A stretch of DNA of 64,000 nt from an uncultured Gammaproteobacteria bacterium (GCA_964427735.1 CAYRUS010000001.1:666756-730755); one strand, 5' to 3'; numbered from the stretch's first letter, positions 3,742-61,819 are shown. Program-made: numbers and translations. The notes: generated from the sequence alone by a model not told the origin.

Positions 3742-4395
3742 TTGACAAATTTTTTCAGCCTGCGTAGCATTATCATACCTGACATGAAGTTGAATAAAAT
3801 TATAAATGCTATTCTTGTTTTCGCAGCCTTTTTGATACTTTTTATATCAGTCTTTCGCACAGCTGCTGTCACTCCTAATTTTTCTTCCAATTTTTCTAAG
3901 GGCACAACTGTTGAAGGTGAAGTAATAGATTATCCTCTGGTATATGCAGGTCGGATTCTTCCTGGACATGCTTTTTGGTCAGTAAAAGCGACTCGAGATA
4001 GACTTTGGTTGTTTTTTACGTCAAATCCTTCCCGCAAGGCAGAACTTAATTTACTGTTTGCTGATAAAAGATTAGGAGCATACATTGAACTAATGGAGAG
4101 AGGGGATTTAGAAAATGCCTACGTATCTTTGATTAAAGCAGAACAATATTTAAAGAAGGCAAGTGACAAAGAAGTTGAAATAAGAAACAAAGGGGTAGAT
4201 ACAACAGATCTTTTAATCAGATTAAGTAATTCTTCTCTAAAACATCAAGAGGTTATAAATGAGGCAAAAACCAAGTTTCCAGACAATGCAGTGGCTGATC
4301 TTGTTCTTGTAGAAAATTATACAGTCGAGGTATATGAGAGATCCAAGTCTGCACTTTTGGAAAAAGGCTTAACACCGCCAGAATATCCATTCTAA
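3742..4395 (+). CDS. Hypothetical membrane-anchored helical protein (DUF5667-like?)
   Basis: 217 aa. N-terminal TM helix followed by a helical region with charged repeats. Confidence 0.4.
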   Translation: MTNFFSLRSIIIPDMKLNKIINAILVFAAFLILFISVFRTAAVTPNFSSNFSKGTTVEGEVIDYPLVYAGRILPGHAFWSVKATRDRLWLFFTSNPSRKAELNLLFADKRLGAYIELMERGDLENAYVSLIKAEQYLKKASDKEVEIRNKGVDTTDLLIRLSNSSLKHQEVINEAKTKFPDNAVADLVLVENYTVEVYERSKSALLEKGLTPPEYPF

Positions 4396-12184: not shown

Positions 12185-12219
12185 ATTGAATAATTTAGGT
12201 GATATAATTTAGCCTTAAA

Positions 12220-12292
12220 GGGCCGGTAACTCAGTGGTTAGAGTGCCAATCTTATAAGTTGGAAGTCGATGGTTCGAATCCATCCCGGCCCA
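12220..12292 (+). tRNA. tRNA-Ile, anticodon UAU (reads AUA)
   Basis: Hand-folded cloverleaf: acceptor GGGCCGG/CCGGCCC, D stem ACTC/GAGT, anticodon stem CCAAT/GTTGG with loop CTTATAA (TAT at 34-36), T stem GATGG/CCATC, discriminator A. 73 nt. Confidence 0.7.
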
Positions 12293-12376
12293 CTCAAATA
12301 CTTTTTAATTTACATTAATAAGTCGTGTAGGTGGCAACTAGTGACAGGAGAATATAGATAAGTACTTTGCTGAAAC

Positions 12377-13003
12377 TTAACCATCACTTTCAAGTAGTCC
12401 TACTAAATCTTTGTGAACTTTTCCATTGGAAATAACTGCACCATTTATATCGCCATCATATCGCTGTTCATTTCAAAACAAGTAAGTCACTTTTCCTCCA
12501 GCCTCTTCAACGATAACTTTAACTGAGACCATATCCACTGCCTTTCCCTTCGTACCAGCAAAAACACAAGTATCATATTGTCCAGATGCCACTAAACAAT
12601 AAGCATTGATAACACAACCAAGATGAAGAACATAGCAATTTGATTTCATGGAAAGATTATGCAAAGGCGGATCAATGTCGTACTTTGCTTCTGACCACCA
12701 TTCAAAGTTAATAACAGAATGTCTAGTCAATGTGTTTTTACTTTTAATGGTTGGTCATTGAGGAAGGCTCTTTCGCCTTTTATTGCTGTATAAAGTCGCT
12801 TCGTAAAAGGGTCATAAACTACTCCGAGAAGAGGTTGACCATCTTTCTTCTTTAATTACCAACTCATTTATCTCCTCGTCTGCAGTGGTAACAATTGTTA
12901 AGGTTTCCTTCTCTCTATACTGCGTTTCGGTATGAAAGTGATTGAGCATGATTCATCCTGCCCGCAGTGCAACTTCTTTTGCAAAATTAAGATCATCATT
13001 CAT
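12377..13003 (-). pseudogene. Inositol monophosphatase (SuhB/IMPase) family pseudogene: in-frame stop and frameshifts plus internal deletion of the metal-binding core
   Basis: Minus-strand fragments in different frames: MNDDLNFAKEVALRAG*, EIMLNHFHTETQYREKETLTIVTTADEEINELVIKEE, KDGQPLLGVVYDPFTKRLYTAIKGERAFLNDQPLKVKT*, ...DTCVFAGTKGKAVDMVSVKVIVEEAGGKVT, ...NGKVHKDLVGLLESDG*. These are collinear with IMPase family motifs (WD.AAG..IV.EAGG). The segment between the N-terminal and 'DGQPLLGVVY' regions, which should carry the DPIDGT metal site, is missing. Confidence 0.6.
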
Positions 13004-13073
13004 GTTGTTGCCATTATATCAGGAGTTGCGTATTTCAGTGTGCAGTTATAGAAGTGAATTATAAATTGGCAGG

Positions 13074-13937
13074 TTACAATTCCGCAAGTTCTTGTTTTTT
13101 CCCTGGTTCCTTGACCTCAGCTAGTTCAAGATATCTTTCCGTAGTTGAAAGTCTCTTGTGTCCAACAATTTGAGAAAGAAGAACTAAATCAACTCCGGCT
13201 TTAAGATTTTCAACAACAAATGTTGTTCTCAAATCATTCACTGAGTAATTAGGAATCCCTGCCTTTTCCATGTATCGATCGATTGCAGCACGTATATTTC
13301 TTACTGCTAGAGGTCTTCCGTTTTTACTTACAAACAAGAATGGAGAATCAGTTTCTGGTCGTACTTTAAGGTAATTTTCTATAGCTTCTCGAGCAGGTTT
13401 ATTTAAAGGAACTTCTCTTTTGGGTTGAGTTGCATAAGCTTCAATAGTAAGCTTGTCTCCCTTGATGTTTTCTCGTTTTAGGTTTGCTACTTCACTAATT
13501 CGCATACCTGTTTGCAAAATTAGTTCGACAATTGCGGCCACTCTGTGGTCATCTCGAACTACATCTCTTAAAGCACGGTATTCAAGAGGAGAAAGAAACT
13601 TAGGTAAAGAAGGCTCAATTTTTGGATGGGCAACAGTGTCTGAAGGATCCCTACTCAAAAATCCTTCTCGTACTAAGTATCTGAAAAAAGTTTTTACAGC
13701 ATTTAACTTTCTGGAAACAGATTTTGGTGTGTATTTTTGAGTAAGCAATTCGTCTCTAAATGCTGCAATATTGTCTTCTGTGACATTATTTGCCACCACG
13801 ACATTCTTGCCCTGTAGAAAGTTAATTAGCTGTTCTATATCCGCCTTGTAAGCTAGTATTGTAGACGGGGAACGACCTTTATTTTCTAGGTTGTCTATAA
13901 ATTTAGGTAATAATTCTTTTACTGTTTCGTCAGCCAT
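13074..13937 (-). CDS. Tyrosine site-specific recombinase, XerC/XerD-like
   Basis: 287 aa. N-terminal core-binding domain, C-terminal catalytic region with R...HxxR...Y (GHKRLSTTERYLEL). Confidence 0.75.
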   Translation of the reverse strand: MADETVKELLPKFIDNLENKGRSPSTILAYKADIEQLINFLQGKNVVVANNVTEDNIAAFRDELLTQKYTPKSVSRKLNAVKTFFRYLVREGFLSRDPSDTVAHPKIEPSLPKFLSPLEYRALRDVVRDDHRVAAIVELILQTGMRISEVANLKRENIKGDKLTIEAYATQPKREVPLNKPAREAIENYLKVRPETDSPFLFVSKNGRPLAVRNIRAAIDRYMEKAGIPNYSVNDLRTTFVVENLKAGVDLVLLSQIVGHKRLSTTERYLELAEVKEPGKKQELAEL

Positions 13938-14464: not shown

Positions 14465-14470
14465 ACTGTG

Positions 14471-14540
14471 TTGCGGGGCTAGGAGTCGAACCTAGTCTGG
14501 AAGATTATGAGCCTTCCGTGCAGCCGTACACTACCCCGCA
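14471..14540 (-). tRNA. tRNA with anticodon CAU (Met elongator / initiator / Ile-lysidine not distinguishable by eye); short D arm
   Basis: Minus-strand sequence TGCGGGGTAGTGTACGGCTGCACGGAAGGCTCATAATCTTCCAGACTAGGTTCGACTCCTAGCCCCGCAA. Acceptor TGCGGGG/CCCCGCA, anticodon loop CTCATAA identical to the E. coli initiator loop, T stem CTAGG/CCTAG. Confidence 0.6.
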
Positions 14541-14680: not shown

Positions 14681-14754
14681 GCCAGCGTAGCTCAGTTGGT
14701 TAGAGCGTGGGATTCATAAACCCAAGGTCGGAGGTTCGATCCCTCCCGCTGGCA
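14681..14754 (+). tRNA. tRNA with anticodon CAU (Met/fMet/Ile2 ambiguous); G1:C72 paired, GGG/CCC in anticodon stem with A31-A39 mismatch
   Basis: GCCAGCG-TA-GCTC-AGTTGGTTA-GAGC-G-TGGGA-TTCATAA-ACCCA-AGGTC-GGAGG-TTCGATC-CCTCC-CGCTGGC-A. 74 nt. Confidence 0.65.
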
Positions 14755-14885
14755 CATATTGTATTTGCTAATTAAAAATGTCTAACTTATAATATGCACA
14801 CATGATAACAGTTGCAAACTGGCATTACTTGAAATTCTCCTAACGGGGGCTAGTTTCCAGTGGCCAAAAGGCAATTTTTAACAGA

Positions 14886-49041: not shown

Positions 49042-49238
49042 TCATTAATTTGATGATACATAGTGATTGATTAATATTAGATGAAAGAGTTGAAAGAATT
49101 AGTTAAGTATGGAGTTGAGCTGTGGCTTGTAGACGCAGTTCGAAAATTTTATCTCAATTCAAATACACCTATTCAGCCAGCATATCAGCTTAGCTATTAG
49201 TGATTTCCATCATTGGTGATTAAAGTGCAGTTCCATAA

Positions 49239-49320
49239 TGGTGGTAAAAATACCAGAGACGCATGAGATAGCTCGTGCATGAGGTGTGGTGGTGCTTGCG
49301 GAGGTGGTATTTTTACCACC
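49239..49320. repeat. Inverted repeat pair TGGTGGTAAAAATACC (49239-49254) / GGTGGTATTTTTACCACC (49303-49320, itself a perfect hairpin), bracketed by direct repeats ATTTCCATCATTG at about 49204 and about 49338
   Basis: Read directly in the intergenic stretch between the yggT-like gene and the hsd island. Confidence 0.5.
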
Positions 49321-49376
49321 CATCCCTATACTAATCCATTTCCATCATTGATGAGCGAAATACACTCCAGGAAACC

Positions 49377-50246
49377 TTACAAGGTAGACTCGTATGAATC
49401 TTTTATCAGTGAGAATACATAATCGGTATCAGTGTCTGGCTCAAATCTAGCAAGTCCAAGGTAGCCCCACTCATTGCTGGTGATGTCTTTAACCAACTTC
49501 TTGCTATCATTTGGATAAGATCTATCTCTGAGCAACACCTTGATGTAATTTGTGTAAAATTCAAACCTCACAAAGCTTTTTGTGGTCTTGTAAGTAATTC
49601 CGCTTTTTTGAGCTGCTTTTTCCTCCACATCTGGCAACTGTAAAATTTGTTCTCTCAAGGTCTTATATTTCTTTTGCATCACATCGCTTGTTTTGTTCAT
49701 ATGGAATTCCAAACTATATTCAGTTGTATCAACCAAGTCAGCGACTTTTCTTGGTTTTAGTGTTGGCGGTGTATAGATGCTTTCCAAATGAAGAATATCA
49801 GGCTGATAATAGTGATAGGACAATAATTCTATGTTACTCTCTTGCTCAACTGCGCCTAAGATGTATCTTCCAAAACCTCTGGCGACTAGTACAACTCTTG
49901 GTAGCTCCCAGTTAACTTTGATTCCTTTACCTAGTCTATTTTCAACAAGTAGTTCAAAATGCTTCTTGTTCTTGATGAGCCAGTTGTAATAAAAGAGTCC
50001 TTGAGCAAGCACTTCTTCGTTTTCTTTCCATTTGTATTCCAATATAACTGGTGAGTTGTTCTCATCTAATCCAAGAGTGTCAATTCTGCCATCATGTATT
50101 GGATATTCTTTCTCAATAAACCTGATACCTAATAAGTCCTCAAGGTTTGCAGCAAAGAAATCTCTTAAAGAAAACTCATCGCCAAAGCCATCATCTTTGA
50201 TTGAGCATTTAATAACTTTATTATTATCTATCTTAAATATAGCCAT
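49377..50246 (-). CDS. PD-(D/E)xK nuclease-fold protein (NucS/DUF91-like N-terminal domain, DUF4268-like C-terminal half); last gene of the hsd operon
   Basis: D...ExK motif GRIDTLGLDENNSPVILEYKWKE. Probable start at the second Met (MAIFKI, 50246), overlapping the hsdR stop (50248-50250). Confidence 0.45.
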   Translation of the reverse strand: MAIFKIDNNKVIKCSIKDDGFGDEFSLRDFFAANLEDLLGIRFIEKEYPIHDGRIDTLGLDENNSPVILEYKWKENEEVLAQGLFYYNWLIKNKKHFELLVENRLGKGIKVNWELPRVVLVARGFGRYILGAVEQESNIELLSYHYYQPDILHLESIYTPPTLKPRKVADLVDTTEYSLEFHMNKTSDVMQKKYKTLREQILQLPDVEEKAAQKSGITYKTTKSFVRFEFYTNYIKVLLRDRSYPNDSKKLVKDITSNEWGYLGLARFEPDTDTDYVFSLIKDSYESTL

Positions 50247-50247
50247 T

Positions 50248-53200
50248 TTACTTTTCTCCAGTCCAATCTTTTGCCAATAATTCAGCTTGCTCAAGTACTA
50301 TTTTGGTTGCACTTTCTTGCTTGTCTGGTGGATATTTGTATTTTTTCAATAGTCGTTTGATATAGACTCTTAGTTTTGCCTGAACGCTTTCTTTAATAGT
50401 CCAGTCAATGGTGGTGTTCTTTCGAAGCATGTCCACCAGTTCTCGTGCCATTGCTTTGAGTGTCTCATCTCCAAGCTCGCGGACAGCACTTTCATTGTTT
50501 GCCAGTGCATCATAAAAAGCTACTTCTTCATCGCTAAGACCTAGATCGTGTCCTTTTTCTTTCTCCAGTTTTATTTTCTTGGCAAGTTCCAGAAGCTCTG
50601 CAATAACTTGTGCCGCCTCAATGGTTCTGTTTTGGTATTTTCGTATTGTCTCTTCAAGCATTTCAGCAAATGAGCGAGACTTTACCAGGTTTTGTTTGGT
50701 CATCGTTCGCAACTCATCATTTAGAAGTTTTTTCAATAGTTCTAGTGCAACATTTTTGTGCTCCATATTCTTAACTTCTGCCAAAAATTCTTCAGAGAAT
50801 ATAGAAATGTCAGGCGATTTGATACCAGCTGCAGAATAGATGTCGATAACCGCATCAGAAGTCACCGCAGAAGAAACAATCTGGCGTATTGCCAAGTCAT
50901 AATCATCGTCAGTTGGTCCACCTCCGTGAGGCTCCATCTTCAGAATAGCACCTCTAATAATTTGGAAGAATGCAACTTCATCACGAATCCTGATTGCTTC
51001 ATCGTGTGGTACAGCCAAAGAAAATGCCTTAGATAGCTCTGAAACCGCCTGTAGGAAGCGTTTTTTACCTTCATTGATGCCTAGCACAAAGTCAGTGGCT
51101 GCAGAGATGGTTTGAGTACGCTGGCCTGGTGTTCCATCAAAGTAATTCTGGTAGTCAAAACCATGAAATAGAGCCTTTACTACCTCATATTTCTCAAGCA
51201 TGACTGATACTGCTTGATCTTGTGGAATGGCCGTTTCCTGGCGGTCTGATTCTGAGTAATAAGAAAGTGCTTCCTTAAGCTCAGGTGCAATGCCAATATA
51301 GTCCACAATAAGTCCACCTTGCTTGTCTTTGTAGACTCGATTGACACGAGCAATAGCTTGCATCAGTCCATGGCCTTTCATTGGTTTATCAACATACATG
51401 GTGTGAAGTGAAGGTACATCAAAACCAGTCAGCCACATATCACGGACAATAACCAACTTCAGTTCATCGTCTGGATCTTTCATTCTTCTGGCTACTTCGT
51501 CCAGCATATGCTTTGGTCTTATATGAGGCTGGAAATTGAGTGGATCAGCAGCACTTCCAGTCATGACAACTTTTAAAAATCCTTTCTTGTCATCATCGCT
51601 ATGCCAATGAGGTCTTAATTTGATAAGTTCGTTATACAGCTCAACCGCAATTCTTCTGCTCATAGCTACTATCATGCCTTTGCCATCCATTACATCCAGA
51701 CGATTTTCAAAATGTTCTACCAAGTCTTTTGCCACCAGCGCAATTCTTTTCTCAGAACCAACCATAGCTTCAAGCCGCGCCCACTTGCTCTTGAGCTTTT
51801 CTTTTCGCTCTGTTTCTTCACCTTCTGTCAGCTCTTCAAATTCAGGATCAATCTTTGGCTGTTCCTCTTTCTTTAGCTCAATTCGTGCCAGCCTTGCTTC
51901 ATAATAGATCGGCACTGTAGCATGATCCTCAACAGCTCTAGTGACATCGTAGACATCCACATACTCGCCAAATACTGCTCTGGTGTTTCTATCAGTAAGT
52001 TCAACTGGAGTACCTGTAAAGCCAATAAATGAAGCGTTTGGCAGTGCATCGCGCATATGCTTGGCAAAGCCTGAAATAAATTCATATTGGCTTCTGTGAG
52101 CTTCATCCGCAATAACTACAATGTTTTTCCTGTCAGACAACATTGGATAAGACTCACTAGAGTTAACTGGCAAGAACTTCTGGATAGTGGTAAATATCAC
52201 ACCACCTGATGCGACCTTCAATAACTCCTGCAGTTCATGTCTGTCAGAAGCCTGTTTTGGTGTTTGCCGCAAGAGGTCAGCGCACTTGGAAAAAGTGCCA
52301 AATAACTGATTGTCCAAGTCATTTCTGTCAGTCAATACAACAAGAGTAGGATTGTTGAGCTCTTGGATCACTTTGCCTGCAAAAAATGTCATTGTCAGAC
52401 TCTTGCCAGATCCTTGCGTATGCCAGACTACACCGGCTCTTCTGTCTCCTTCTTCTTGTGTTGCCTTAATAGTACTTTCAACTGCTTTATTGGTGGCAAA
52501 GTATTGATGATATGCAGCAGCTTTTTTTATAGTCTTTTCTCCGTCAGTCTCAAAGACGATAAAGTTTGAGATAAGGTCTAAGAGTCTGTTCTTGTCGAAT
52601 ATACCTTTCAAGAGTACTTCCAGCTGTGGCAGAGCATTTGGTGCTAACTCTTCACCGTCTACTGTTCGCCACCTGGTAAACCATTCCAAATTGGCAGAGA
52701 GTGTGCCGACTCTGGCATCAGTTCCATCACTGATGATGGAAAGTTCGTTATAGGCAAAAAGTGTTGGAATGTCTTGCTTGTAAGTCTGGATTTGATTAAA
52801 GGCACCTTTGACGGTCGCTTTTTCATCTCCAGGATTTTTGAGTTCTATCACCACCAACGGTAAACCATTTACAAAGACGATAACATCAGGCCTTCTGTTG
52901 ATATTATTCTCAATGACAGTGAATTGATTGACCGCCACAAAGTCATTTTCAGAAGCGTTATTCAGGTCTACCAGTCTCACCTTATCACCAGCCACACTTC
53001 CATCACTTCTCATGTATTCCACATCCACGCCATCACGAAGGTATGAGTGAAATATCTTGTTGTTGAGTACCAAGCTTGGAGTAACAAATGCTACTTGCAA
53101 TGCTTTCTTGAAAGCTTCTTCTTTGGCATCGGCTGGAATATCAGGATTGAATTTCTCAATTGCTTTCCAAAGTCTTTCTTCCAGAACTACATCGGCATAC

Positions 53201-53328
53201 GACTTACGTTCTGGATTTTCTCCATCAGGAGGTGGTGCAATCTCAGGACCACCAACCACAGAATAACCAAGCTCCTCAAGCCATTCCAATGTTGCTAGTT
53301 CTAAATCTGTTTCTGTGTATTTAGTCAT
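50248..53328 (-). CDS. hsdR: Type I restriction enzyme R subunit (HsdR)
   Basis: N-terminal [22 protein letters not shown], Walker [14 protein letters not shown] box [12 protein letters not shown], helicase C-terminal motifs; about 1025 aa. ORF track start is 53352; the MTKY start at 53328 is more likely. Confidence 0.9.
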
Positions 53329-54490
53329 GATTAGCTTTCTTGATATCTTCAACTATAAAGGATGCTCTTTCATACAGTTCATCGTAAGTAACAATATCTA
53401 TATTTCTTGAGTCTCGCTGGAAAAGCTCGTACGTTCTTGCTTTAGTTCTTAGTTCCTCAGTATCTCCAGAGAATTGATTTGAATTTCCGATTATTAATAT
53501 GGTTTTAGGATCAACTGTCTGTTGCTTAATATGTTTACCTTCGTCATCAAAGTTTTTGCTTGCATTTGCCTCAGATTTAATTTGCCAACTAGCCTTTTGT
53601 TCTAGTATTTGTGAAACGGCATGGATTAAGTCTGATGATAAACACCAACTACCTGAACGGTTTTTGTCCTCTCCAAACAGTGGAGTGTTTGGTTTTTTAA
53701 GCTCTACTAATACAGTAAATCTATTACAGCTTAATAAAAAATCTCCAATCTCACCATCTTTTCCAGCAATATTTGTATTAGAAACATGTACCTCTTTTTG
53801 AAGTATTCCTAAAAATCGATAGTCTAGTCCGTATCCAAATATCCAAGGATTCTTTGTGAAAAAATGCTGCCATGCGATTTCTTCTCTTTTATCATTTAGT
53901 GACTCTTGTTCTTGATACTTCTCTAAATATCCGTCTTCATTTAATAATTTATAAAATACGTCAAGCTGATTTTTCCTATAACCGATGTTGGTTATATCAG
54001 TAGAGGTAACTAGTCCATTTTTTATCAATTCTTTTAAAAGCTTTTCACCTTCTTCAGTCGATAAAAGTGTAACTATCTTTTTTTTAGTTTCTTCGTTAAG
54101 AGTGAGAAAAGTTTCATCGGATAAGCCAATCCTTCTCTCGGAAATACTTTTTAGGTCCAGCTTTCTTAAAAAAGAAATAAAGCTCATCACCTTTTCGAAA
54201 GTAAACGATGAAAACGTAACTTTCTCATCAGTTTTTGTCCACTGACCTTTGGATAATCTGAATTTCTCTATAACTACTCTGTTGATGTCGTCTTTATCTT
54301 TTATGTAGCCAACAGTGACCTTTAGTTTTATTTGAGGTGATAGTTCAAATTCTTCTGTATCAGATGCATAAAAGTTAAGATACTTTCCATCACCACTACC
54401 AAAATTGCTCACGTACAATACATCAGTACTTGAGTTTCCTGCAATGTCTGCATCAGATGGTTCTGGTATTTTCCAATCGTCAAAGCTCAT
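53321..54490 (-). CDS. DUF4263 (Shedu SduA-like) PD-(D/E)xK nuclease-domain protein embedded between hsdS and hsdR
   Basis: C-terminal half [25 protein letters not shown]...[27 protein letters not shown]...[10 protein letters not shown]...[13 protein letters not shown] matches my recollection of the DUF4263/Shedu nuclease domain (D...ElK core). 389 aa, start 1 nt after the hsdS stop, stop overlapping the hsdR start. Confidence 0.45.
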
Positions 54491-54491
54491 A

Positions 54492-55772
54492 TTAATTCAC
54501 TCTTATCTTTCCACTCATAAGTCTTGGTAATAGCGAGTCTCTTAATGTCGTTAGAGTCATTATTTCGTGCATGTTTTCATCAATTTTTAATAGCAAGTGG
54601 CTTGCTGACTTTTCAAATAACTGTCTAACACTTGAATCTGGATACAACACATTAAGAATTTTTAATTCTGTTGGTCTAACTCGCTGCCTGGAACCTGTTG
54701 AGCCAGTTGATAAGCTCGAGAAGTATGTATAAAAAATGTTTTCACGAAACATAAAGTTGCTCCAAGTCCAGTCTTCTTTTTTTGGTACCACATTAATGAA
54801 TTCCGTTGAGCTTATAGATTTTTCATTCCACCTATCAGTAAAGATAGTCCAAATACGCTTTGCATTTTTTGGATTTAGTTTAGAAATGAGAATGCTATCC
54901 TGACTTATGTGCGTTTTATTGCTTTTTATCGTATTTCCTAGTTCTAGCATTGGTGAGTTATATTGGTCGAAAGAAGGAATGCTGAAATGCCAATAGTTTT
55001 GGTTTCCGTTCTTACTTGGATTAATTGATTTGGTGTTGATTTCAAATATTTGTTTGACCTTTTTAACCATCCATCCTTTTGGTATCTCGCCAAGTTCACT
55101 TTCCACCATCTCGCCGCCGCTGGATTTGTATGGCTCGCCATTTTCATTTGGAAATTCAAAATCCACAAACCACTGTTTGAATAGAGCTTTACCTATCTCC
55201 TCCAACGTCTTATTCATCCTGCGGTTTAATTCAATCTTGTCATCAAGTGAGGAGAGAATAGAAGCGATTTGTTTTTGCTCGTTTTCTGAAGGAAATGGAA
55301 TACGTGATCTTTCAAGAACATCTGGATTAAATGCTGGATATGTAGATGTAGTTGTATCAGCAATTGCTGACAAATAATTTGTGTATTCCTCTGTTGTGAG
55401 GTAATAGTACAGAAACCTTGGATTAACTTTTTTACTACTTACAACAGCGTATCCGGTAGATGCAATAAGATTAGGTTTTGTTTTAGAAACAAATGCAAAG
55501 TGCTTAAGATTTGGACGTACTGTTGATATTAAAATATCATTATCAGAAACAATCCGTTTTGCTCTGCTTGGTGCATCTTTCAAAGATAACTTTTGAGTTT
55601 CTAATATTTCGCCTTTAAGAGTGGATGATACATCTATATACTCAACCCACTCATACTTAAAATCCTTATTGACTGATGCTTCATTTACTTTTGCAACCTC
55701 TGACAACAAAGCAATATCCCAATCCTCAGGAATTTCACCAATTTCTGTTTGTTTGAATGTATTATTTGTCAT
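54492..55772 (-). CDS. hsdS: Type I restriction-modification specificity subunit (HsdS), two target-recognition domains
   Basis: Conserved central and C-terminal HsdS repeats (IPFPSENEQKQIASILSSLDDKIELNRRMNKTLEEIGKALFKQWFVDFEFP; ...LLLKIDENMHEIMTLTTLRDSLLPRLMSGKIRV) separated by two variable domains; 426 aa. Confidence 0.85.
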   Translation of the reverse strand: MTNNTFKQTEIGEIPEDWDIALLSEVAKVNEASVNKDFKYEWVEYIDVSSTLKGEILETQKLSLKDAPSRAKRIVSDNDILISTVRPNLKHFAFVSKTKPNLIASTGYAVVSSKKVNPRFLYYYLTTEEYTNYLSAIADTTTSTYPAFNPDVLERSRIPFPSENEQKQIASILSSLDDKIELNRRMNKTLEEIGKALFKQWFVDFEFPNENGEPYKSSGGEMVESELGEIPKGWMVKKVKQIFEINTKSINPSKNGNQNYWHFSIPSFDQYNSPMLELGNTIKSNKTHISQDSILISKLNPKNAKRIWTIFTDRWNEKSISSTEFINVVPKKEDWTWSNFMFRENIFYTYFSSLSTGSTGSRQRVRPTELKILNVLYPDSSVRQLFEKSASHLLLKIDENMHEIMTLTTLRDSLLPRLMSGKIRVN

Positions 55773-56403
55773 CTGTATTTTTGTTATCTCGTTTTTGTAT
55801 AGCAGCTTTTTTGCTTACAGGAATCTTGTCATAAATAGCATCAATTTCTTTTGGCTCGGTTATCATTTTTTCAGCTATAAAATTTACAAGTTTAAAAAGA
55901 GCTGATGCTGTTTCAATGTCATCCTTTATATCCAACTCTCCTGGATGTACTGACTCGTTACCAATAACACGAAGTGAGTCAAGCGACTGCTGAACTTTAG
56001 GAGGAAGTCCATTTTTCACTAGATTGGCGATATCAGTATTAAGATCTTTTCCTTTTTCACCAAGCTGAATACATAGCTTTTGAATTGCCAACCTAAGCAA
56101 AGCAGCTGATCCTCTTGGAGACCTTTGCAGAATAGAAACTGCTTCGTTATAGTCTTGAACAATATCATTGTTGAGGTCCTCATTAGGAGGCTCTATTCCT
56201 GAAAAATCTGGATATATCATCTTCTCTTCGTGCCAAATGGAGTACTGGCCACATCTTGCACAAAAACAAACTCGTGTATTTTCTAAAAAACCTCCATTTA
56301 CTGATTTAATGCCGTGCCAATTTTGATTTGAAAAAGCACTGCAGAAAGGACAGTTGAATCCTGACGCTTCAAATTCTGGTTGTGTAAATGGAATTTTTGT
56401 CAT
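55762..56403 (-). CDS. DUF4145-like protein with N-terminal Zn-ribbon (CPFC...CARC), embedded between hsdM and hsdS
   Basis: N-terminal CPFCSAF...CFCARCGQY Cys4 ribbon. C-terminal helical domain with [15 protein letters not shown]...[15 protein letters not shown] resembling the DUF4145 R..GN.aaH core often found in hsd operons. ATGA overlap with the hsdM stop. Confidence 0.5.
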
Positions 56404-57938
56404 AAATCGTAGCCAACTTTTTTTAAATTTTCTTTGATCTTTGCTTCCAGCTCTTTTGACTCTTTGAATTGTGCTGATAATTCGCTGGTGAGTTTTTCCA
56501 TTTTCTCCTCAAACACTTCGTCATCTTCCATCTCAAAATCTGTGCCAACATATCTGCCAGGAGTGAGGACATAGCTATTCTTTTCTACTTCTTCAATCTT
56601 GGCTGATTTGCAAAATCCTTTGACATCCTCGTAGTCGCCGTCTGGATTCCTCCAGTTGTGGTAGGTGTCTGCGATTTGTTTGAGTTCTTTATCTGATAAT
56701 TCACGATGGCGTCTGTCAACCATAGTGCCTAGCTTGCGAGCGTCAATAAAGAGAATCTCTTCATGTCTGTCTCGGAAGTTGTGGTCGTATCTGTCGCGAG
56801 ATACAAACCACAAAGAGGCTGGAATGCCTGTGGTGTAGAACAACTTGTCTGGCAGTGCCACTATGCAGTCAACCAAGCCTTTCTTTATGAGTTCTTCTCT
56901 GATCTTGCCTTCATTGGAAGTGTTGGAAGAAAGCGCACCATTTGCCATCACAAATCCAGCAATGCCGGTAGGTGATAGATGATGGATAAAGTGCTGAATC
57001 CAAGCATAGTTGGCATTGCCTGTTGGTGGAACGCCATATTTCCAGCGGACATCATCGCGGAGTCGCTCGCCACCCCAGTCACTGACATTGAATGGAGGAT
57101 TGGCCAGAATAAAATCCGCTTTCAAGTCTTTGTGAAGATCGTTGTGGAAACTGTCAGCATCGGATTCTCCAAGATTGCCTTCTATGCCGCGAATAGCCAG
57201 ATTCATCTTTGCAAGTCTCCAAGTAGCGGCGTTGCTTTCCTGTCCATATACTGAAATGTCGCCAACATTACCGCCATGCTCCTCAACAAACTTTTCACTT
57301 TGGACAAACATACCGCCACTGCCACAACAAGGATCGTAAACACGGCCTTTGTATGGCTCTATCATTTGCACCAGAAGCTTAACTACTGATGCTGGCGTGT
57401 AGTATTCACCACCTGCTTTGCCTTCTGCGCTGGCAAATCTGCCTATAAAATATTCATAGACACGACCTAAAATATCTTTTGATTTTGACTCTTTATCTCC
57501 AAGACCTAGTGAGCTGAATATATCGACAATTTCACCTAAGCGCTGTTTGTTAAGGTCTGGTCTGGCAAATCTTTTTGGAAGCACTCCTTTGAGCGTTGGA
57601 TTTTCTTTCTCAATAGCTATCATTGCATCATCAATGAGCTTGCCGATTTCTGGCTTTTTGGCGTTTTCCTTTAAGTAATTCCACCTGGCATTTTCCGGCA
57701 CCCAGAATACATTCCTTGCCTTGTAAGCATCTTTGTCCTCACACTCACCATCAAATGCTTCCGGATCGTTCTTGATGGTCTGATACGCTTCTTCGAATGA
57801 ATCTGAAATGTATTTGAGAAAGATAAGACCAAGCACAACATGCTTATATTCACCTGGATCTAAGTTGCCGCGAAGCTTGTCTGCGGCTGACCATAATTTT
57901 GTTTCAAAGCCTAGATTAGCTGATGTATTATTTGCCAT
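56400..57938 (-). CDS. hsdM: Type I restriction-modification N6-adenine DNA methyltransferase subunit (HsdM)
   Basis: SAM-binding motif [13 protein letters not shown], catalytic motif [15 protein letters not shown], HsdM N-terminal domain; 512 aa. Confidence 0.9.
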
Positions 57939-57963
57939 AATTTTCTAAATTCTCTTTTAATGC

Positions 57964-58173
57964 TTACTTCTTATTTCTTGACAAGTAAGCTTCAATATCA
58001 CTCTTTCGATAGCGCCTGTCACCAACACCTTTTCGCGTGCCTACACGAACAGCTTTCAGCGTGCCGTTGCGGTCCCACCTACGGAGAGTCTGAATATTTA
58101 CATTTAGTATTTTTGCTGCTTCCTGTAAGGAAATAAGCTCTTCAAGCTCTGCGTTCATATAAGTTATGTCCAA
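57964..58173 (-). CDS. Small helix-turn-helix DNA-binding protein (excisionase/MerR-like HTH)
   Basis: LQEAAKILNVNIQTLRRWDRNGTLKAVRVGTRKGVGDRRYRKSDIEAY, typical of Xis-family/MerR-type HTH; 69 aa. Immediately upstream of hsdM on the same strand. Confidence 0.55.
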   Translation of the reverse strand: MDITYMNAELEELISLQEAAKILNVNIQTLRRWDRNGTLKAVRVGTRKGVGDRRYRKSDIEAYLSRNKK

Positions 58174-58501
58174 TTGTACTAAATTGACTAGTAGAATACT
58201 AGATACTCAGGTAATTGATTAGTAAATGAAAAATAGATCTATGGTAATAATTTACCTATATAATTTATGAGTAATTTCCTTATAACAAAGACTTTCGTAA
58301 AAGTATTAGCCTTATTTGAACAGAGTACAAAGAGTATAAGCTGAGATTGCTTATTATCTCTGCATACATGTCAAAGCTATCTGTTAAATAAGCTGAGGTG
58401 TGTTCCAAGCACAGGCGCTTTATAAGAAGCGCCAAATAAATACTCATGAAATCTTAAAATGTAAAATACGGCCTGCCATCAGGTAGAATACGAATAAGAG
58501 A

Positions 58502-59281
58502 ATGAAAATAAAAGATAATTCTGATCTTCTGGAACTAAAGGTAAACATTGAATGCAAGAATGACATTGCTTATATGGATTGTGCTTTGCTTCTTGATAAG
58601 CCTGAGTTCTTAAGACTGCTGCCTGAATACAGAAAAAAGCATGGCATAGATGTGCTAGTGCCGTATACTAAGTTCTATGAATGGATTTCCACAAAGATGG
58701 ATGCTGACATCAAAGCAAAAGAAGATGACATCGAAAAAGGTATAACAGTCAACGATATAACAGAGCTGAACCTACCGTTTTTGGAGTTTGAAGAAGATGC
58801 AAAGTCACTCTGTAGACAATTCAAAAAGCCTGGATACTTTGTGCAGATAATTCAGTTTGCCATTGCTTGTGGTGTAGTTGGAGACATCAGCTATCAGCAT
58901 ACGCGAATTGAGGTAACTCCAACTGATCCACCGCCACCACCTGAAGAAACAGAACTACCAGAAGTAAGAATTGTTATCACTCCAATGACAACATTAAAGG
59001 ACGTACAGGAAGTCTTTGAAAAGAATGTGCCTGATATATTTGAATCTCATATGAAACTACTCAACTACTATTACAGAATGAAGAACCGCAAAGCTGGCAA
59101 CTTCAGGCGAGATCGAGAATGGTACTGGAAGAATTTAGAAGGTGAAGGATATACAGAGATTGCACTTTCAGAGGCATCACCATCAGAAAGGCTTGAGTAC
59201 AAAAAGAGTCGCAACAGATATTTGATTACTGAGTATCAAATGGTAAAACAGGCAATCCGCAGATACAAAAACCTCCTCTAG
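58502..59281 (+). CDS. Hypothetical protein (element-borne)
   Basis: 259 aa; poly-Pro stretch PTDPPPPPEE; no family recognised. Confidence 0.4.
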   Translation: MKIKDNSDLLELKVNIECKNDIAYMDCALLLDKPEFLRLLPEYRKKHGIDVLVPYTKFYEWISTKMDADIKAKEDDIEKGITVNDITELNLPFLEFEEDAKSLCRQFKKPGYFVQIIQFAIACGVVGDISYQHTRIEVTPTDPPPPPEETELPEVRIVITPMTTLKDVQEVFEKNVPDIFESHMKLLNYYYRMKNRKAGNFRRDREWYWKNLEGEGYTEIALSEASPSERLEYKKSRNRYLITEYQMVKQAIRRYKNLL

Positions 59282-59354
59282 TAGTGGTGTACAAATAATC
59301 TTCAACTTTCTGTAGCTCTTTAGACTTCATCATTTTTAAGACAATGTTCTTAAG

Positions 59355-59504
59355 ATGAAACTAAGCCAGAAAGCAATCGACGAATTCAAAGAGATTTACT
59401 TCAAAAAGTTTGGTGTGCAATTGACAGACGATAAAGCTAATGAGCTTGGCGTTGAGTTGTTGGAATTCTTCAAATTGATATACAAACCAATTCCAAAAAA
59501 CTGA
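59355..59504 (+). CDS. Small hypothetical protein (49 aa), tightly packed before the HTH_36 gene
   Basis: ATG at 59355, stop TGA 59502-59504, next gene ATG at 59507. MKLSQKAIDEFKEIYFKKFGVQLTDDKANELGVELLEFFKLIYKPIPKN. Not in the ORF track (less than 60 aa). Confidence 0.3.
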   Translation: MKLSQKAIDEFKEIYFKKFGVQLTDDKANELGVELLEFFKLIYKPIPKN

Positions 59505-59506
59505 AT

Positions 59507-60019
59507 ATGAAACGCAAAAACTTTACCATGATTCCAAATGCATTGCTAAGTGAATCTCAACTATCAGTTCCTGCAAGATATTTGCTTTGTGTACTGCACA
59601 AATATTCGTTTCAAAAGGATTATTGCTGGCCAGGACAAGAAACGTTAGGTAAGGATTTAGGATACTCAGCAAGGCATATAAGAAACCTATTAAATGAACT
59701 ATTAAAATCTGGAGTTGTTGTGTCCGAAAGATGTGGATGGAATCGCACAAATACTTACAAGTTGAGTAAGAATCTTCAGTCAACCAGAGTTGCCTCATCA
59801 AATGAGTCAAACGGCAAATCGTGCCAGAAACAGACTTCCGCTCATTTTGGAACTGTAATTCCAATCCATCAAGGAAATCCACTTCCAACTAAGAATACTT
59901 ATGGAAGTAGAAAAGAGAATAACGGAAGTTCAAAAGGACTAGAAAGTTTACGGCAAGCAATGGTTGATATAGGTCTTAAACCAAATAGCCAAATAAGGCT
60001 AGAAAAGGCTGACTTTTAG
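59507..60019 (+). CDS. Helix-turn-helix (HTH_36-type) protein, replication-initiator/regulator-like, element-borne
   Basis: N-terminal FTMIPNALLSESQLSVPARYLLCVLHKYSF...YCWPGQETLGKDLGYSARHIRNLLNELLKSGVV resembles the HTH_36 / replisome-organiser N-terminal domain common on plasmids and phages. Confidence 0.45.
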   Translation: MKRKNFTMIPNALLSESQLSVPARYLLCVLHKYSFQKDYCWPGQETLGKDLGYSARHIRNLLNELLKSGVVVSERCGWNRTNTYKLSKNLQSTRVASSNESNGKSCQKQTSAHFGTVIPIHQGNPLPTKNTYGSRKENNGSSKGLESLRQAMVDIGLKPNSQIRLEKADF

Positions 60020-60061
60020 CCTAGTATAGCGATAAAATTTATACATAGGAGAATTTAGAAA

Positions 60062-61819
60062 ATGAACTTGATATACGCACAATATTCTAGAAAGTCATCT
60101 GAGTCAAAAGAGAAACAAGCTCTGTCAATTTTTGAGCAAAATGAGGAGTGCAAAAAGGCTGTTGTTCGAGACAATTTGAAAATCGCACATATCTTTGAGG
60201 AATCGAGATCTGCATACAAACCAAATAACAGGCCAGAGTTCACACAAATGATTGAACTGATAGAGGCCAAGAAAGTAAATGCTATCTTGACCTGGAAACC
60301 AGACCGACTATGCCGCAATCCAATGGAAGGCGGACACCTTCTCCAGTTGCTACAAGATGGAAAGTTACAGGAAATTCGATCGACAGATGGTGAAAAATAT
60401 ACACAGGATTCAGATCATCTTATTTTACAGATCCATTTTGGCATGGCTAACCAATATTCCAGAAACCTGAGTAAGAATGTCAAAAGAGGCAACCATTACA
60501 TATTCCACAATAAGAAAAAATGGATTGGACCAGCTAAGCCAGGATACATCAACTACTACGATGAGGCAGCCAAAGAAAAAAAGATAGGCGTGGACGAACT
60601 AAGATTTCCACTGATCCAAAATGCTATTAAGCTCATATTGTCCGGCACTCACACTCCTATGGAAGCTTTTGACGTGCTCAATAACAAATGGAAATTTAGG
60701 TCCAGAAAACGAGGTTCACTAGGTGGCAAACCACTAGCAAAGTCTGGTTGGTATCGGATTTTGACAGATAGTTATTACTATGGCTTAATGGTTCGCACTG
60801 AAGGAGAAGTGATTGGAACACACAAGCCAATGCTCACAGAAGATGAATTTGACACGCTACAGGTAATCTTAGGACGCAAAGGCAAGCCAAGAATGGCCAG
60901 GCATGAATTTGCATATAAACATGTGCTCAAATGTGGTGAATGTGGTGGTTCTGTTACTGCTGAAGAAAAAGTGCAGATAATCTGTTCATCTTGTAAATCC
61001 AAATTTCATAAAGGCAAAGTAACCAATGCTTGTCCGCACTGTAAAATGTTGATTGAGGAGATGAAAAAGCCAACAATTCTCAAATATGTGTACTACCACT
61101 GCACCAAGCGAGTCAATAAATCTTGTACTCAAGGAAGTGTAACAATAGAAAATCTTGAGAAGAGAATAAACGAAGAACTGGATAAGTTCGAATTGAGCGA
61201 AGAATTCCGCGACTGGTGCATTGACCACTTGAATGAACTCAATGAGAAAGAAGAAGTTGATATTAAAACTATCAAAGAAAACCTCGTAAATGAGATGAAT
61301 AAATGTGATAAAGCACTTGCGAAACTTACAAGGCTCAGAATTTCAAGAGAAAACGTCTCAAATAGTGCTGAAATGGAGAAATTCTATGATGATGAAGAGA
61401 AAAGACTGCTAAAAGAGCGCAAAGACATCATGAAGCAAATTGGTACAGTCGATAAGAAACAGGAGGAGTGGTATTTCCAGTCCAAGGAGACATTTAACTT
61501 TGCTTGCACTGCCAAATATCAGTTTGAGACTGGTGACGTTAGAACCAAGACGTATATTTTGTCAAAACTTGGTTCGAACCTAACAATTCTAGATCGAAGC
61601 CTCCAAATTTCAGGCGAAAGGCCATATTTCCTAATAGAGAAAGCAAAGAAGGAGATTCAAGAGGTTGTCCTGGCGTTAGAACCTGAAGAAAAGGCCATAA
61701 TATCAAGCAATTTGCTAGCTTATGAGCCTATCAGTACTATCTTGCTGCGGAGCAGGGATTCGAACCCCAAATTCCAGTTCCAAAGACTGGCGTGTTACCA
61801 TTACACCACTCCGCAATGA
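60062..61819 (+). CDS. Large serine recombinase (resolvase catalytic domain + recombinase domain + Zn-ribbon + coiled coil)
   Basis: N-terminal LIYAQYSRKSSESKEKQALSIFEQ (catalytic Ser region) and DRLCRN motif; central recombinase domain; CGECGGSV...CSSCKSK...CPHCKM zinc ribbon; C-terminal coiled coil. 585 aa. The last 25 codons read through the antisense of tRNA-Gln. Confidence 0.8.
   Translation: MNLIYAQYSRKSSESKEKQALSIFEQNEECKKAVVRDNLKIAHIFEESRSAYKPNNRPEFTQMIELIEAKKVNAILTWKPDRLCRNPMEGGHLLQLLQDGKLQEIRSTDGEKYTQDSDHLILQIHFGMANQYSRNLSKNVKRGNHYIFHNKKKWIGPAKPGYINYYDEAAKEKKIGVDELRFPLIQNAIKLILSGTHTPMEAFDVLNNKWKFRSRKRGSLGGKPLAKSGWYRILTDSYYYGLMVRTEGEVIGTHKPMLTEDEFDTLQVILGRKGKPRMARHEFAYKHVLKCGECGGSVTAEEKVQIICSSCKSKFHKGKVTNACPHCKMLIEEMKKPTILKYVYYHCTKRVNKSCTQGSVTIENLEKRINEELDKFELSEEFRDWCIDHLNELNEKEEVDIKTIKENLVNEMNKCDKALAKLTRLRISRENVSNSAEMEKFYDDEEKRLLKERKDIMKQIGTVDKKQEEWYFQSKETFNFACTAKYQFETGDVRTKTYILSKLGSNLTILDRSLQISGERPYFLIEKAKKEIQEVVLALEPEEKAIISSNLLAYEPISTILLRSRDSNPKFQFQRLACYHYTTPQ
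61745..61815 (-). tRNA. tRNA-Gln, anticodon UUG
   Basis: Minus strand TGCGGAG-TG-GTGT-AATGGTA-ACAC-G-CCAGT-CTTTGGA-ACTGG-AATT-TGGGG-TTCGAAT-CCCTG-CTCCGCA-G; U8 present; anticodon TTG. Confidence 0.7.

Follow-up and report, generated by a model that had tools for sequence, protein, structure and literature searches.

How does the gene for a large serine recombinase (LSR) come to end inside a tRNA gene on the opposite strand, and where does the DNA that it belongs to begin? These questions are raised by a 64,000-nucleotide stretch (GCA_964427735.1, CAYRUS010000001.1:666756-730755), deposited under an uncultured Gammaproteobacteria bacterium and referred to here in its entirety as the window. 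The host is a tiny-genome (Patescibacteria) bacterium. An initial annotation of positions 58174-61819 described the backbone of an integrative element at tRNA-Gln, with a serine recombinase and defence cargo, and considered its left boundary undefined. The present analysis points, with a probability of roughly 0.85, to a 12.6-kb integrative element put by its own LSR at the extreme 3' end of tRNA-Gln(UUG). Its unusual features are the systematic targeting of tRNA genes by a serine integrase, an attachment site (attP) predicted to lie in the integrase open reading frame (ORF), and a conserved 49-amino acid (aa) partner.

The integrase reading frame and the ends of the element

The ORF listing places a 585-aa LSR at 60062-61819 (+), and ARAGORN places tRNA-Gln(ttg) at 61744-61815 (-) with an Rfam tRNA score of 64.5 bits. 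The last 25 codons of the LSR fully contain the tRNA-Gln(UUG) gene in antisense and the protein ends in ISTILLRSRDSNPKFQFQRLACYHYTTPQ followed by a stop, which bears out the initial annotation of a frame running through the antisense tRNA to 61819. Residues 1-562 of this integrated, chimeric form are element-encoded and residues 563-585 (RSRDSNPKFQFQRLACYHYTTPQ) come from antisense tRNA-Gln. An open frame over 72 nt of antisense tRNA is unremarkable alone, with an estimated frequency of ~0.3 by chance. The overlap is systematic because 45 of 80 homologous loci show an antisense tRNA over the LSR 3' end.

Pfam identifies a resolvase-type catalytic domain with a serine nucleophile in the window LSR (Resolvase PF00239, residues 7-144, E 3.5e-19), and the PHROG integrase match is phrog_95 (4.3e-48). 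R10 and S12 are invariant in an alignment of 45 LSR sequences, and the same alignment has eight invariant Cys at 291-355, the zinc ribbon. The Pfam match for the latter (PF13408, Zn_ribbon_recom) is weak in the window protein (E 6e-4, below cutoff); PF07508 and PF13408 are called in LSR homologues. A PDB search with the single LSR sequence gave no match. SPbeta SprA surfaced as the best solved relative only in a family profile search (E 1.1e-19, profile positions 12-301), and the alignment of SprA residues 16-325 to the profile is taken as reaching past the catalytic domain into the recombinase domain. The window LSR is presumably catalytically active.

The initial annotation noted that no long direct repeat of the tRNA 3' end is present at the far side. 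A 25-mer from the 3' part of the tRNA, allowing up to 3 mismatches, indeed matches only itself in the window and gives no direct-repeat attL. The left attachment site was located because the excised-form C-terminus of the integrase sits orphaned at 49123-49200 (+), where WLVDAVRKFYLNSNTPIQPAYQLSY is encoded and followed by a stop. The frame at 49117-49200 begins GAG CTG TGG CTT GTA GAC GCA GTT CGA AAA TTT TAT ..., translates as E L W L V D A V R K F Y L N S N T P I Q P A Y Q L S Y and stop, and is the sole frame with a tail-type motif on the + strand of the 64-kb window. This tail is homologous to the intact and orphan tails of the recombinase family (motif [VI]D.VR[TK][YF][FY]), and 60062-61747 joined to 49123-49200 makes an in-frame ORF of 587 aa. 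The orphan tail therefore places attP inside the integrase gene, and on this sequence evidence the overlap between the LSR and the tRNA is not incidental.

The attL site (49117-49160, +) consists of a B arm of host flank ending at 49118, the core GCTG at 49119-49122 and the P' arm (TGGCTTGTAGACGCAGTTCGAAAATTTTATC). The attR site (61700-61790, +) has its P arm inside the LSR coding sequence, the second copy of the core at 61744-61747 and a B' arm made of the tRNA acceptor and T-arm (CGGAGCAGGGATTCGAACC). These sites bound a predicted element of 12,625 bp at window positions 49119-61747, with only GCTG carried by both attL and attR. The left boundary thus falls at 49119-49122, inside the 49.0-49.4 kb stretch where the initial annotation had suggested mapping a shift in composition. 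The attR core corresponds to tRNA positions 74-71, and because the core is tRNA positions 71-74 the tRNA body is unaffected. In the reconstructed attB (...GGAGTTGAGCTG/CGGAGCAGGGATTCGAACC..., the slash marking the junction), from which the target assignment also derives, positions 1-73 of tRNA-Gln are unaltered by integration and CCA is unencoded before and after. The predicted attP sequence is TCTTGCTG/TGGCTTGTAGACGCAGTTCG. The synthetic predicted junctions read ...CCTATCAGTACTATCTTGCTG/TGGCTTGTAGACGCAGTTCGAAAATTTTATC... for attP and ...TTAGTTAAGTATGGAGTTGAGCTG/CGGAGCAGGGATTCGAACCCCAAATTCC... for attB. An alternative attL register with a GCT core at 49125-49127, 6 nt rightward and giving an attB with encoded CCA, was dropped since it breaks the family geometry, in which GAC occupies nt 16-18 counted from codon 0 and VR[TK] follows codon 0 by seven codons.

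Related elements sit at tRNA-Gln of other hosts (L001, L005 and L007; LSR 83-87% identical), and two of them corroborate this boundary. The window, L007 (LSR 87% identical) and L005 (83%) align from GCTG rightward, through a tail of identical length and its stop, up to a conserved box TTCCATCAnTG, and their sequences left of GCTG are unrelated. A blastn comparison of L007 2411-2509 with window 49126-49224 gave 79% identity (E 1.7e-15); the tail itself is 79% identical as DNA and about 56% as protein. The initial annotation would have been undermined by relatives carrying the same genes in the same place with identical flanks; the flanks of L001, L005 and L007 are unrelated, the opposite outcome. 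Composition also sets the element apart from the host. The element has a GC fraction of 0.387 versus 0.347 for the host, in which 12.6-kb windows never rise above 0.364, and its tetranucleotide distance is 0.249 versus 0.075 +/- 0.009 for host windows. Foreign composition and relatives in unrelated flanks support the description of an integrative element at tRNA-Gln with a serine recombinase and defence cargo.

A recombinase clade at tRNA 3' ends

A search at E <= 1e-3 returned 1,866 recombinase homologues, overwhelmingly from Patescibacteria (Woesebacteria, Levybacteria, Roizmanbacteria, Paceibacteria and others). The tRNA overlap was examined in the closest ~120 proteins and in 80 genomic loci out of these >1,800 homologues. 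The 45 loci in which ARAGORN finds an antisense tRNA over the LSR 3' end, mostly in Patescibacteria, comprise 14 Asn, 13 Ser, 11 Gln, 5 Met, 1 Glu and 1 Trp tRNA genes. All 45 tRNAs are on the opposite strand, with the 3' end facing the recombinase and in one reading frame, and several further family contigs end within such a tRNA. The same signature is seen in the proteins: about 85 of the 120 best homologue C-termini read ...(W/L)(L/R)R.RDSNP... or stop 2-4 residues after (W/L)(L/R), where DSN (GAT-TCG-AAC) is the T-loop of the tRNA read in antisense. Another ~20 of the 120 have the other conserved tail, ...(L/R)..(V/I)D.VRT(Y/W)(F/I).... The LSR clusters follow tRNA identity, with the window protein grouped with the tRNA-Gln users L005 and L006 next to the tRNA-Ser users L036 and L082. 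In 18 other loci an orphan tail precedes the LSR on the same strand; it starts with tRNA-end codons followed by (T)(I/V)DAVRTYF..., and in the 16 of these loci with a paired attR it is 5.5-11.2 kb away from that site. As judged from sequence, tRNA 3' ends are the dedicated target of the entire clade, and the sites are resolved to within a few bases.

An att consensus was derived from 17 attL/attR pairs of the family. The stretch common to attL and attR is 4-9 nt across the 17 pairs. The attL consensus is t.GCtgcGaaccgT.GACGc.GTTaGAACcTATTTT, the attR consensus is TgGCtgcG.gG..gGGATTCGAACCc, and GC at nt 3-4 is invariant. The host-side B arm is without conservation, even among integrases that are 83-87% identical. 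Sliding the P' arm against the B' arm in the 17 pairs gave one peak at +5 bp, with an identity of 0.46 versus 0.16-0.32 elsewhere. The T-loop-like P' motif GTT[A/C]GAA aligns with the tRNA T-arm only at 5 bp outward; in the window the B' motif is GATTCGAACC and the P' motif is GTTCGAA. In serine integrases the attP zinc-ribbon motif is set 5 bp farther out from the centre than its attB counterpart (PMC3783163), and the clade shows this ~5-bp outward displacement on the right arms, the only arms compared; the arms are kin by descent and count as one observation rather than 17. From this we infer that the zinc-ribbon domain reads the T-loop and T-stem in attB and the T-loop-like GTT(A/C)GAACC in attP. 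The crossover dinucleotide probably lies within GCTG.

In the proposed mechanism, the excised circle would carry an integrase gene of 587 codons with attP across its last ~27 codons. The P arm would be codons ~553-561, the crossover would fall in the TTG-CTG codons and the P' arm would occupy the next ~10 codons. Recombination in the 4-nt GCTG core would fuse the P arm with the acceptor and T-arm of the tRNA, and the gene in its integrated form would therefore end in 23 residues read from antisense tRNA. The native 25-residue tail with its stop would be left 12.6 kb away at 49123-49200, with the tRNA body untouched. The P' motif, 5 bp outward, would provide the geometry by which LSR zinc ribbons tell attP from attB. 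A 49-aa hairpin protein would most likely be the directionality factor or an accessory protein, the HTH_36 and 259-aa genes could plausibly replicate the excised circle, and the Xis-like helix-turn-helix (HTH) protein could plausibly act as a regulator.

The tail exchange may be without consequence. Tail and tRNA read-through would then be neutral, with a compact attP that happens to overlap the stop region and two integrase forms that behave alike. The best-conserved part of the tail (codons 2-11) is the expected ~25-bp P' half-site, with which the first ten codons coincide, and the read-through length, which ranges from 2 to >45 codons, is set only by where the tRNA happens to hold a stop. 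The C-terminal extremities of LSRs are often dispensable. A second motif, [FY][YHC][IVF]P.[FYL], speaks against neutrality: it lies ~10 residues past the P' arm, outside a normal att site, and recurs in many intact and orphan tails. The arrangement is also kept in tRNA-targeting LSR clades down to ~35% identity to the window protein. On balance, the neutral explanation is given slightly better than even odds. A more ambitious proposal is that the integrase reports its own integration state, through a conserved ~25-residue episomal tail (VD.VRTYF...[FY]xIP) in one form versus an arbitrary tRNA-antisense peptide in the other. Joined to this are an integrated form transcribed head-on into an active tRNA gene, the 49-aa hairpin as a new recombination directionality factor (RDF) family of about 1,900 clusters, and recognition of one half-site, with the tRNA acceptor and T-arm serving as B' and the other half-site largely ignored. 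Together these would make a built-in directionality and expression switch. All parts of this joint proposal holding at once is doubtful.

Several observations extend the picture of the family. Two orphan tails lie upstream of one integrase in L058 (94, 3685) and L014 (50, 484), consistent with remnants of earlier tandem insertions. The smallest delineated element is the 5.5-kb one in L082 (6095-6182, 11684-11773), with a tRNA-Ser(tga) copy on either side and an attL B arm formed by the 5' end of a different tRNA gene. Family members from Verrucomicrobiota, Aminicenantes, Acidobacteriota and other phyla (L048, L055-L057, L062-L064, L067, L069, L075, L077) sit on large chromosomal contigs, lack a nearby tRNA and retain long native tails (DDVRTY..AERAAALIYAHF..). 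The window also contains a divergent tRNA-Met pair at 14470-14540 (-) and 14681-14755 (+), the arrangement that is the occupied target of the tRNA-Met-specific family members L025-L030. In the window this site is empty, with 6 nt between the tRNA 3' end and the end of a 126-aa host ORF. At 12220-12293 lies a tRNA-Ile whose anticodon is TAT, an uncommon bacterial means of reading AUA.

Mobility, tandem arrays and decay

Tandem arrays in relatives indicate that integration has occurred repeatedly. LSRs with native tails were considered as free attP forms, and this was dropped when they were found in tandem arrays in L007, L021, L039, L042, L043 and L061; on chromosomal contigs with informative flanks, such LSRs are P-P' junctions between neighbouring elements. 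L007 has a P-P' junction, then a 1.5-kb segment without a recombinase (11689-13265), then tRNA-Gln. This segment carries HATPase_c_2 and DUF4325 genes and may represent an element that has decayed or that is mobilised in trans. L039, L042, L043 and L061 each have another, distant LSR next to tRNA-Asn ~8 kb downstream, and in L021 another LSR and junction lie upstream. The arrays suggest that a resident attR (P-B') is still usable as a target, which fits with the unconserved B arm. L002, from another sample and with an LSR 95% identical to that of the window, diverges right after GCTG into GCGCCTTCATGAAGATGAGC (3846-3878), and its protein ends in LLAPS and a stop. Neither a tRNA nor the P' arm of the family accounts for this sequence, and the contig stops 26 nt further on. 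The L002 junction GCTG/GCGCCTTCATGAAGATGAGC was considered as an attP and dropped because its right half is unmatched in the window; it may be a secondary-site or tandem junction.

A number of results weigh against a mobile element placed by its own LSR. No empty attB was found in a close relative, and the site is occupied in two other assemblies of the same organism. The right-flank GDSL protein was used to look for an empty site, and its close matches are only from the same genome, with the site occupied; the GDSL gene recurs identically on a 760-kb contig and the next most similar relative shares just 47% identity, therefore the host is without a close sequenced relative. Joint Genome Institute (JGI) metagenomes, scanned with a single exact P' motif, yielded neither a free attP nor a circular contig: 25 of the 26 matches are orphan attL-type tails, the remaining one (L114) has the P' motif contiguous with a distant (30% identical) LSR, and all 26 are on non-circular contigs. 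The P' motif is absent from IMG/VR, where LSR relatives are only <=30% identical. Scans of the 11 element proteins with Pfam, NCBIfam, PHROGs and PADLOC revealed no relaxase, capsid or packaging genes. Within the integrase, Pfam Recombinase PF07508 was undetected in the window protein at E <= 0.01; it is precomputed for many LSR homologues at 38-53% identity. From the core up to the GAC codon, the P' arm of the window does not follow the family consensus. Within GCTG the sequences do not single out the crossover dinucleotide, and the family-invariant GC is palindromic, which would be unusual for an LSR. Finally, the tail is more alike as DNA than as protein, and its conservation may therefore reflect an att site and not a peptide.

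These results bear most directly on the possibility of a fixed island that is no longer mobile, through its non-native tail or other decay, and is inherited vertically for defence. This would account for the absence of a detected empty site, circular form or attP junction, for an integrated integrase without its native tail, and for an orphan tail that, compared with L007, changes faster in protein than in DNA. It is at odds with backbone ORFs that are all intact with catalytic residues present, with orphan tails that retain the same length and stop in the window, L005 and L007, with near-identical elements (90-95%) in other samples (L002), and with the repeated recent integrations indicated by tandem arrays in relatives. 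A fixed island is considered unlikely, and the integrative element is probably still mobile today.

A phage satellite or phage-inducible island, needing a helper Patescibacteria phage instead of replicating as an autonomous integrative plasmid, is less probable still. The elements are small (5.5-12.6 kb) and have no transfer genes, the defence cargo is typical of satellites, the window element has a replication-initiator-like gene, and 3 sister elements have LexA/S24-type repressors where others have Prim-Pol/AAA_25 modules. Against this, no capsid, terminase small subunit or packaging-redirection genes are found in the element or among the top families of 98 sister-element proteins, and IMG/VR is without close relatives. 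Transfer and mobilisation families are likewise missing from the top families of those 98 proteins. A degraded prophage that lost its structural genes is the least credible alternative and is very improbable. The phrog_95 match and the phage-like replication and excisionase matches would fit it. Pfam and PHROGs scans found no capsid, terminase, tail or lysis genes, the precise att boundaries of sister elements at 5.5-11.2 kb are too small and regular for remnants, and the family (>=35% identity) is absent from 2.9 million viral contigs.

Backbone genes, defence cargo and known systems

The HTH_36, 49-aa and 259-aa genes reported upstream of the LSR in the initial annotation are all present. 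The conserved partner of the integrase is, by synteny, the 49-aa ORF (59355-59504, +) and not the HTH_36 or 259-aa gene. tblastn found it in 61 of the 80 loci, non-Patescibacteria members included, which makes it the most conserved LSR neighbour; it is always co-oriented with the LSR and 29-1912 nt upstream. A profile search returned 1,889 representative clusters at E <= 1e-3, nearly all of 48-90 aa. The AlphaFold2 (AF2) model is a two-helix hairpin (pLDDT 93.6), and the protein has no Pfam match and no significant PDB match by sequence or fold. Because its synteny with the serine integrase is conserved, a directionality factor or accessory subunit is the most likely role, at somewhat less than even odds.

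The HTH_36 gene (59507-60019, +; Pfam HTH_36 4e-9, PHROG replication initiation 6.7e-14) is found in 2 of the 80 family loci, and its product resembles the N-terminal part of phage replication initiators (O-like or DnaD-like). The 259-aa gene (58502-59281, +) belongs to the backbone, with homologues upstream of the LSR in 6 of the 80 loci only. Its product has no match in Pfam, NCBIfam, PHROGs or PADLOC, and the single-sequence AF2 model, made with no alignment, is unusable (pLDDT 38). Sister elements carry Prim-Pol, AAA_25 and LexA/S24 repressor genes in place of these variable backbone genes. The 69-aa protein of the HTH_17/MerR/excisionase family (57964-58173, -; Pfam HTH_17 1.6e-12, TIGR01764 1e-8, PHROG excisionase) had been described as heading the hsd operon. 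Its gene does lie 25 nt upstream of hsdM and is kept in 10 of the 80 family loci, but in L005 it heads different cargo and is therefore a backbone gene rather than an hsd-operon gene. It is a candidate regulator or second RDF. The intergenic region at 58174-58501, from which the cargo operon runs leftward and the backbone operon rightward, has only short repeats, and a consensus promoter scan of it found none.

A non-coding stretch lies just inside attL at 49203-49354. It has a box, ATTTCCATCATTGGTGA, that recurs at 49338-49354, and a perfect 16-bp inverted repeat (49240-49255/49305-49320; fold z = -3.1) flanked by a 17-nt direct repeat, ATTTCCATCATTG(G/A)TGA. The first box copy is kept in L005 and L007 just past the stop of the orphan tail, and the hairpin at 49240-49320 is specific to the window element. 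A promoter and terminator consensus scan at attL found none; a bidirectional terminator, an origin or a protein-binding site are possibilities for the box and hairpin.

By its family matches, the cargo of the element is all anti-phage defence: type I restriction-modification (RM), Shedu, PD-T7-4 and PDC-S18. All six genes are on the - strand: a PDC-S18 candidate defence protein (DUF5655/NucS_C-like; 49377-50294; Pfam, PADLOC PDC-S18 9.5e-64), the type I restriction subunit HsdR (50248-53352; Pfam, PADLOC REase_I E = 0), Shedu SduA (53321-54490; Pfam SduA_C 2.5e-28, PADLOC SduA 3.8e-141), the type I specificity subunit HsdS (54492-55772; Pfam, PADLOC), PD-T7-4 (DUF4145; 55762-56403; PADLOC 1.5e-85, Pfam DUF4145) and the type I methyltransferase HsdM (56400-57938; Pfam N6_Mtase 1.4e-110, PADLOC). 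sduA is nested between hsdR and hsdS, and PD-T7-4 between hsdS and hsdM, in one type I RM operon whose stops and starts overlap or abut. Defence cargo is also present in 13 sister elements; the genes seen in sister elements include type II RM, OLD/AAA_15-21, ThsB-TIR, Schlafen/AlbA_2 and the like. Two assemblies of the window organism from different sequencing runs (L003 and L004) have contigs that break at the same point ~1.2 kb into hsdM, which suggests that part of hsdM is repeated or variable within the community.

The window recombinase resembles SPbeta SprA, phiC31, Bxb1, A118/LI and TP901-1 in its resolvase catalytic domain and a Cys-rich zinc ribbon with a long insertion, and its homologues also in a Pfam recombinase domain. 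Phage and integrative and conjugative element (ICE) serine integrases are expected to need a small accessory protein for excision. The SPbeta RDF, SprB/YotN, is also very small, and the window 49-aa partner has no detectable similarity to solved RDFs. The very short att identity and the attP half-site motif 5 bp outward are further shared with phage and ICE integrases (PMC3783163). The window clade differs from these in targeting tRNA 3' ends, which is rare for serine integrases (PMC7192596), in an attP predicted within the integrase ORF that leads to a swap of the C-terminal ~25 residues on integration, in an unconserved B arm, and in forming 5.5-12.6 kb non-phage islands of Patescibacteria hosts. 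The initial annotation held that serine integrases are less common at tRNA sites, in agreement with a 2020 survey in which 14 of 297 serine-integrase elements targeted tRNA genes, a finding called not previously reported and for which experimental proof was deemed necessary (PMC7192596).

Tyrosine-integrase tRNA islands (P4-like and phage-inducible chromosomal island-like) are similar to the window clade in their use of the tRNA 3' end, the adjoining integrase, tandem accretion and defence cargo. They belong to another recombinase superfamily and rebuild the tRNA with a long repeat, whereas only 4-9 nt are common here and the crossover is at the discriminator and acceptor top, outside the mature tRNA body. 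In mycobacteriophage integration-dependent immunity and in SSV1-type archaeal integrases, a coding sequence spans attP and its 3' end changes on integration, the excised and integrated states thereby yielding different proteins. Both use tyrosine integrases; the spanning gene is a repressor in the mycobacteriophages, and the SSV1 integrase gene is split in two, unlike the window integrase, which gains a new short tail. In the available passages of the tycheposon preprint (Hackl et al., bioRxiv 10.1101/2020.12.28.424599), 27 of 937 Prochlorococcus elements have a large serine instead of a tyrosine recombinase, and as far as those passages extend this minority is the nearest precedent for tRNA-targeting serine integrases. 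Tycheposons are described there as small tRNA-associated elements with replication modules and adaptive or defence cargo, an analogy of architecture only. They differ in being overwhelmingly tyrosine-recombinase elements with partial tRNA repeats in another host phylum, and those passages describe no attP in the integrase ORF or tail exchange. Full-text literature searches, which have incomplete coverage and give absence of evidence only, returned no description of the clade or of LSR elements at Patescibacteria tRNA genes.

Serine integrases are thought to avoid tRNA genes, and here a dedicated clade is detected with >1,800 homologues (E <= 1e-3). The clade supplies a candidate new directionality-factor family and is a natural case in which to ask how the T-arm of a tRNA comes to be read as an LSR half-site and whether one half-site suffices. 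Speculatively, integrases that read conserved tRNA-gene sequence and have a compact attP might serve as genome-engineering tools in organisms without landing pads, Patescibacteria among them. For the Patescibacteria, whose mobilome is poorly known, the clade offers a handle on mobile elements and on the traffic of defence genes.

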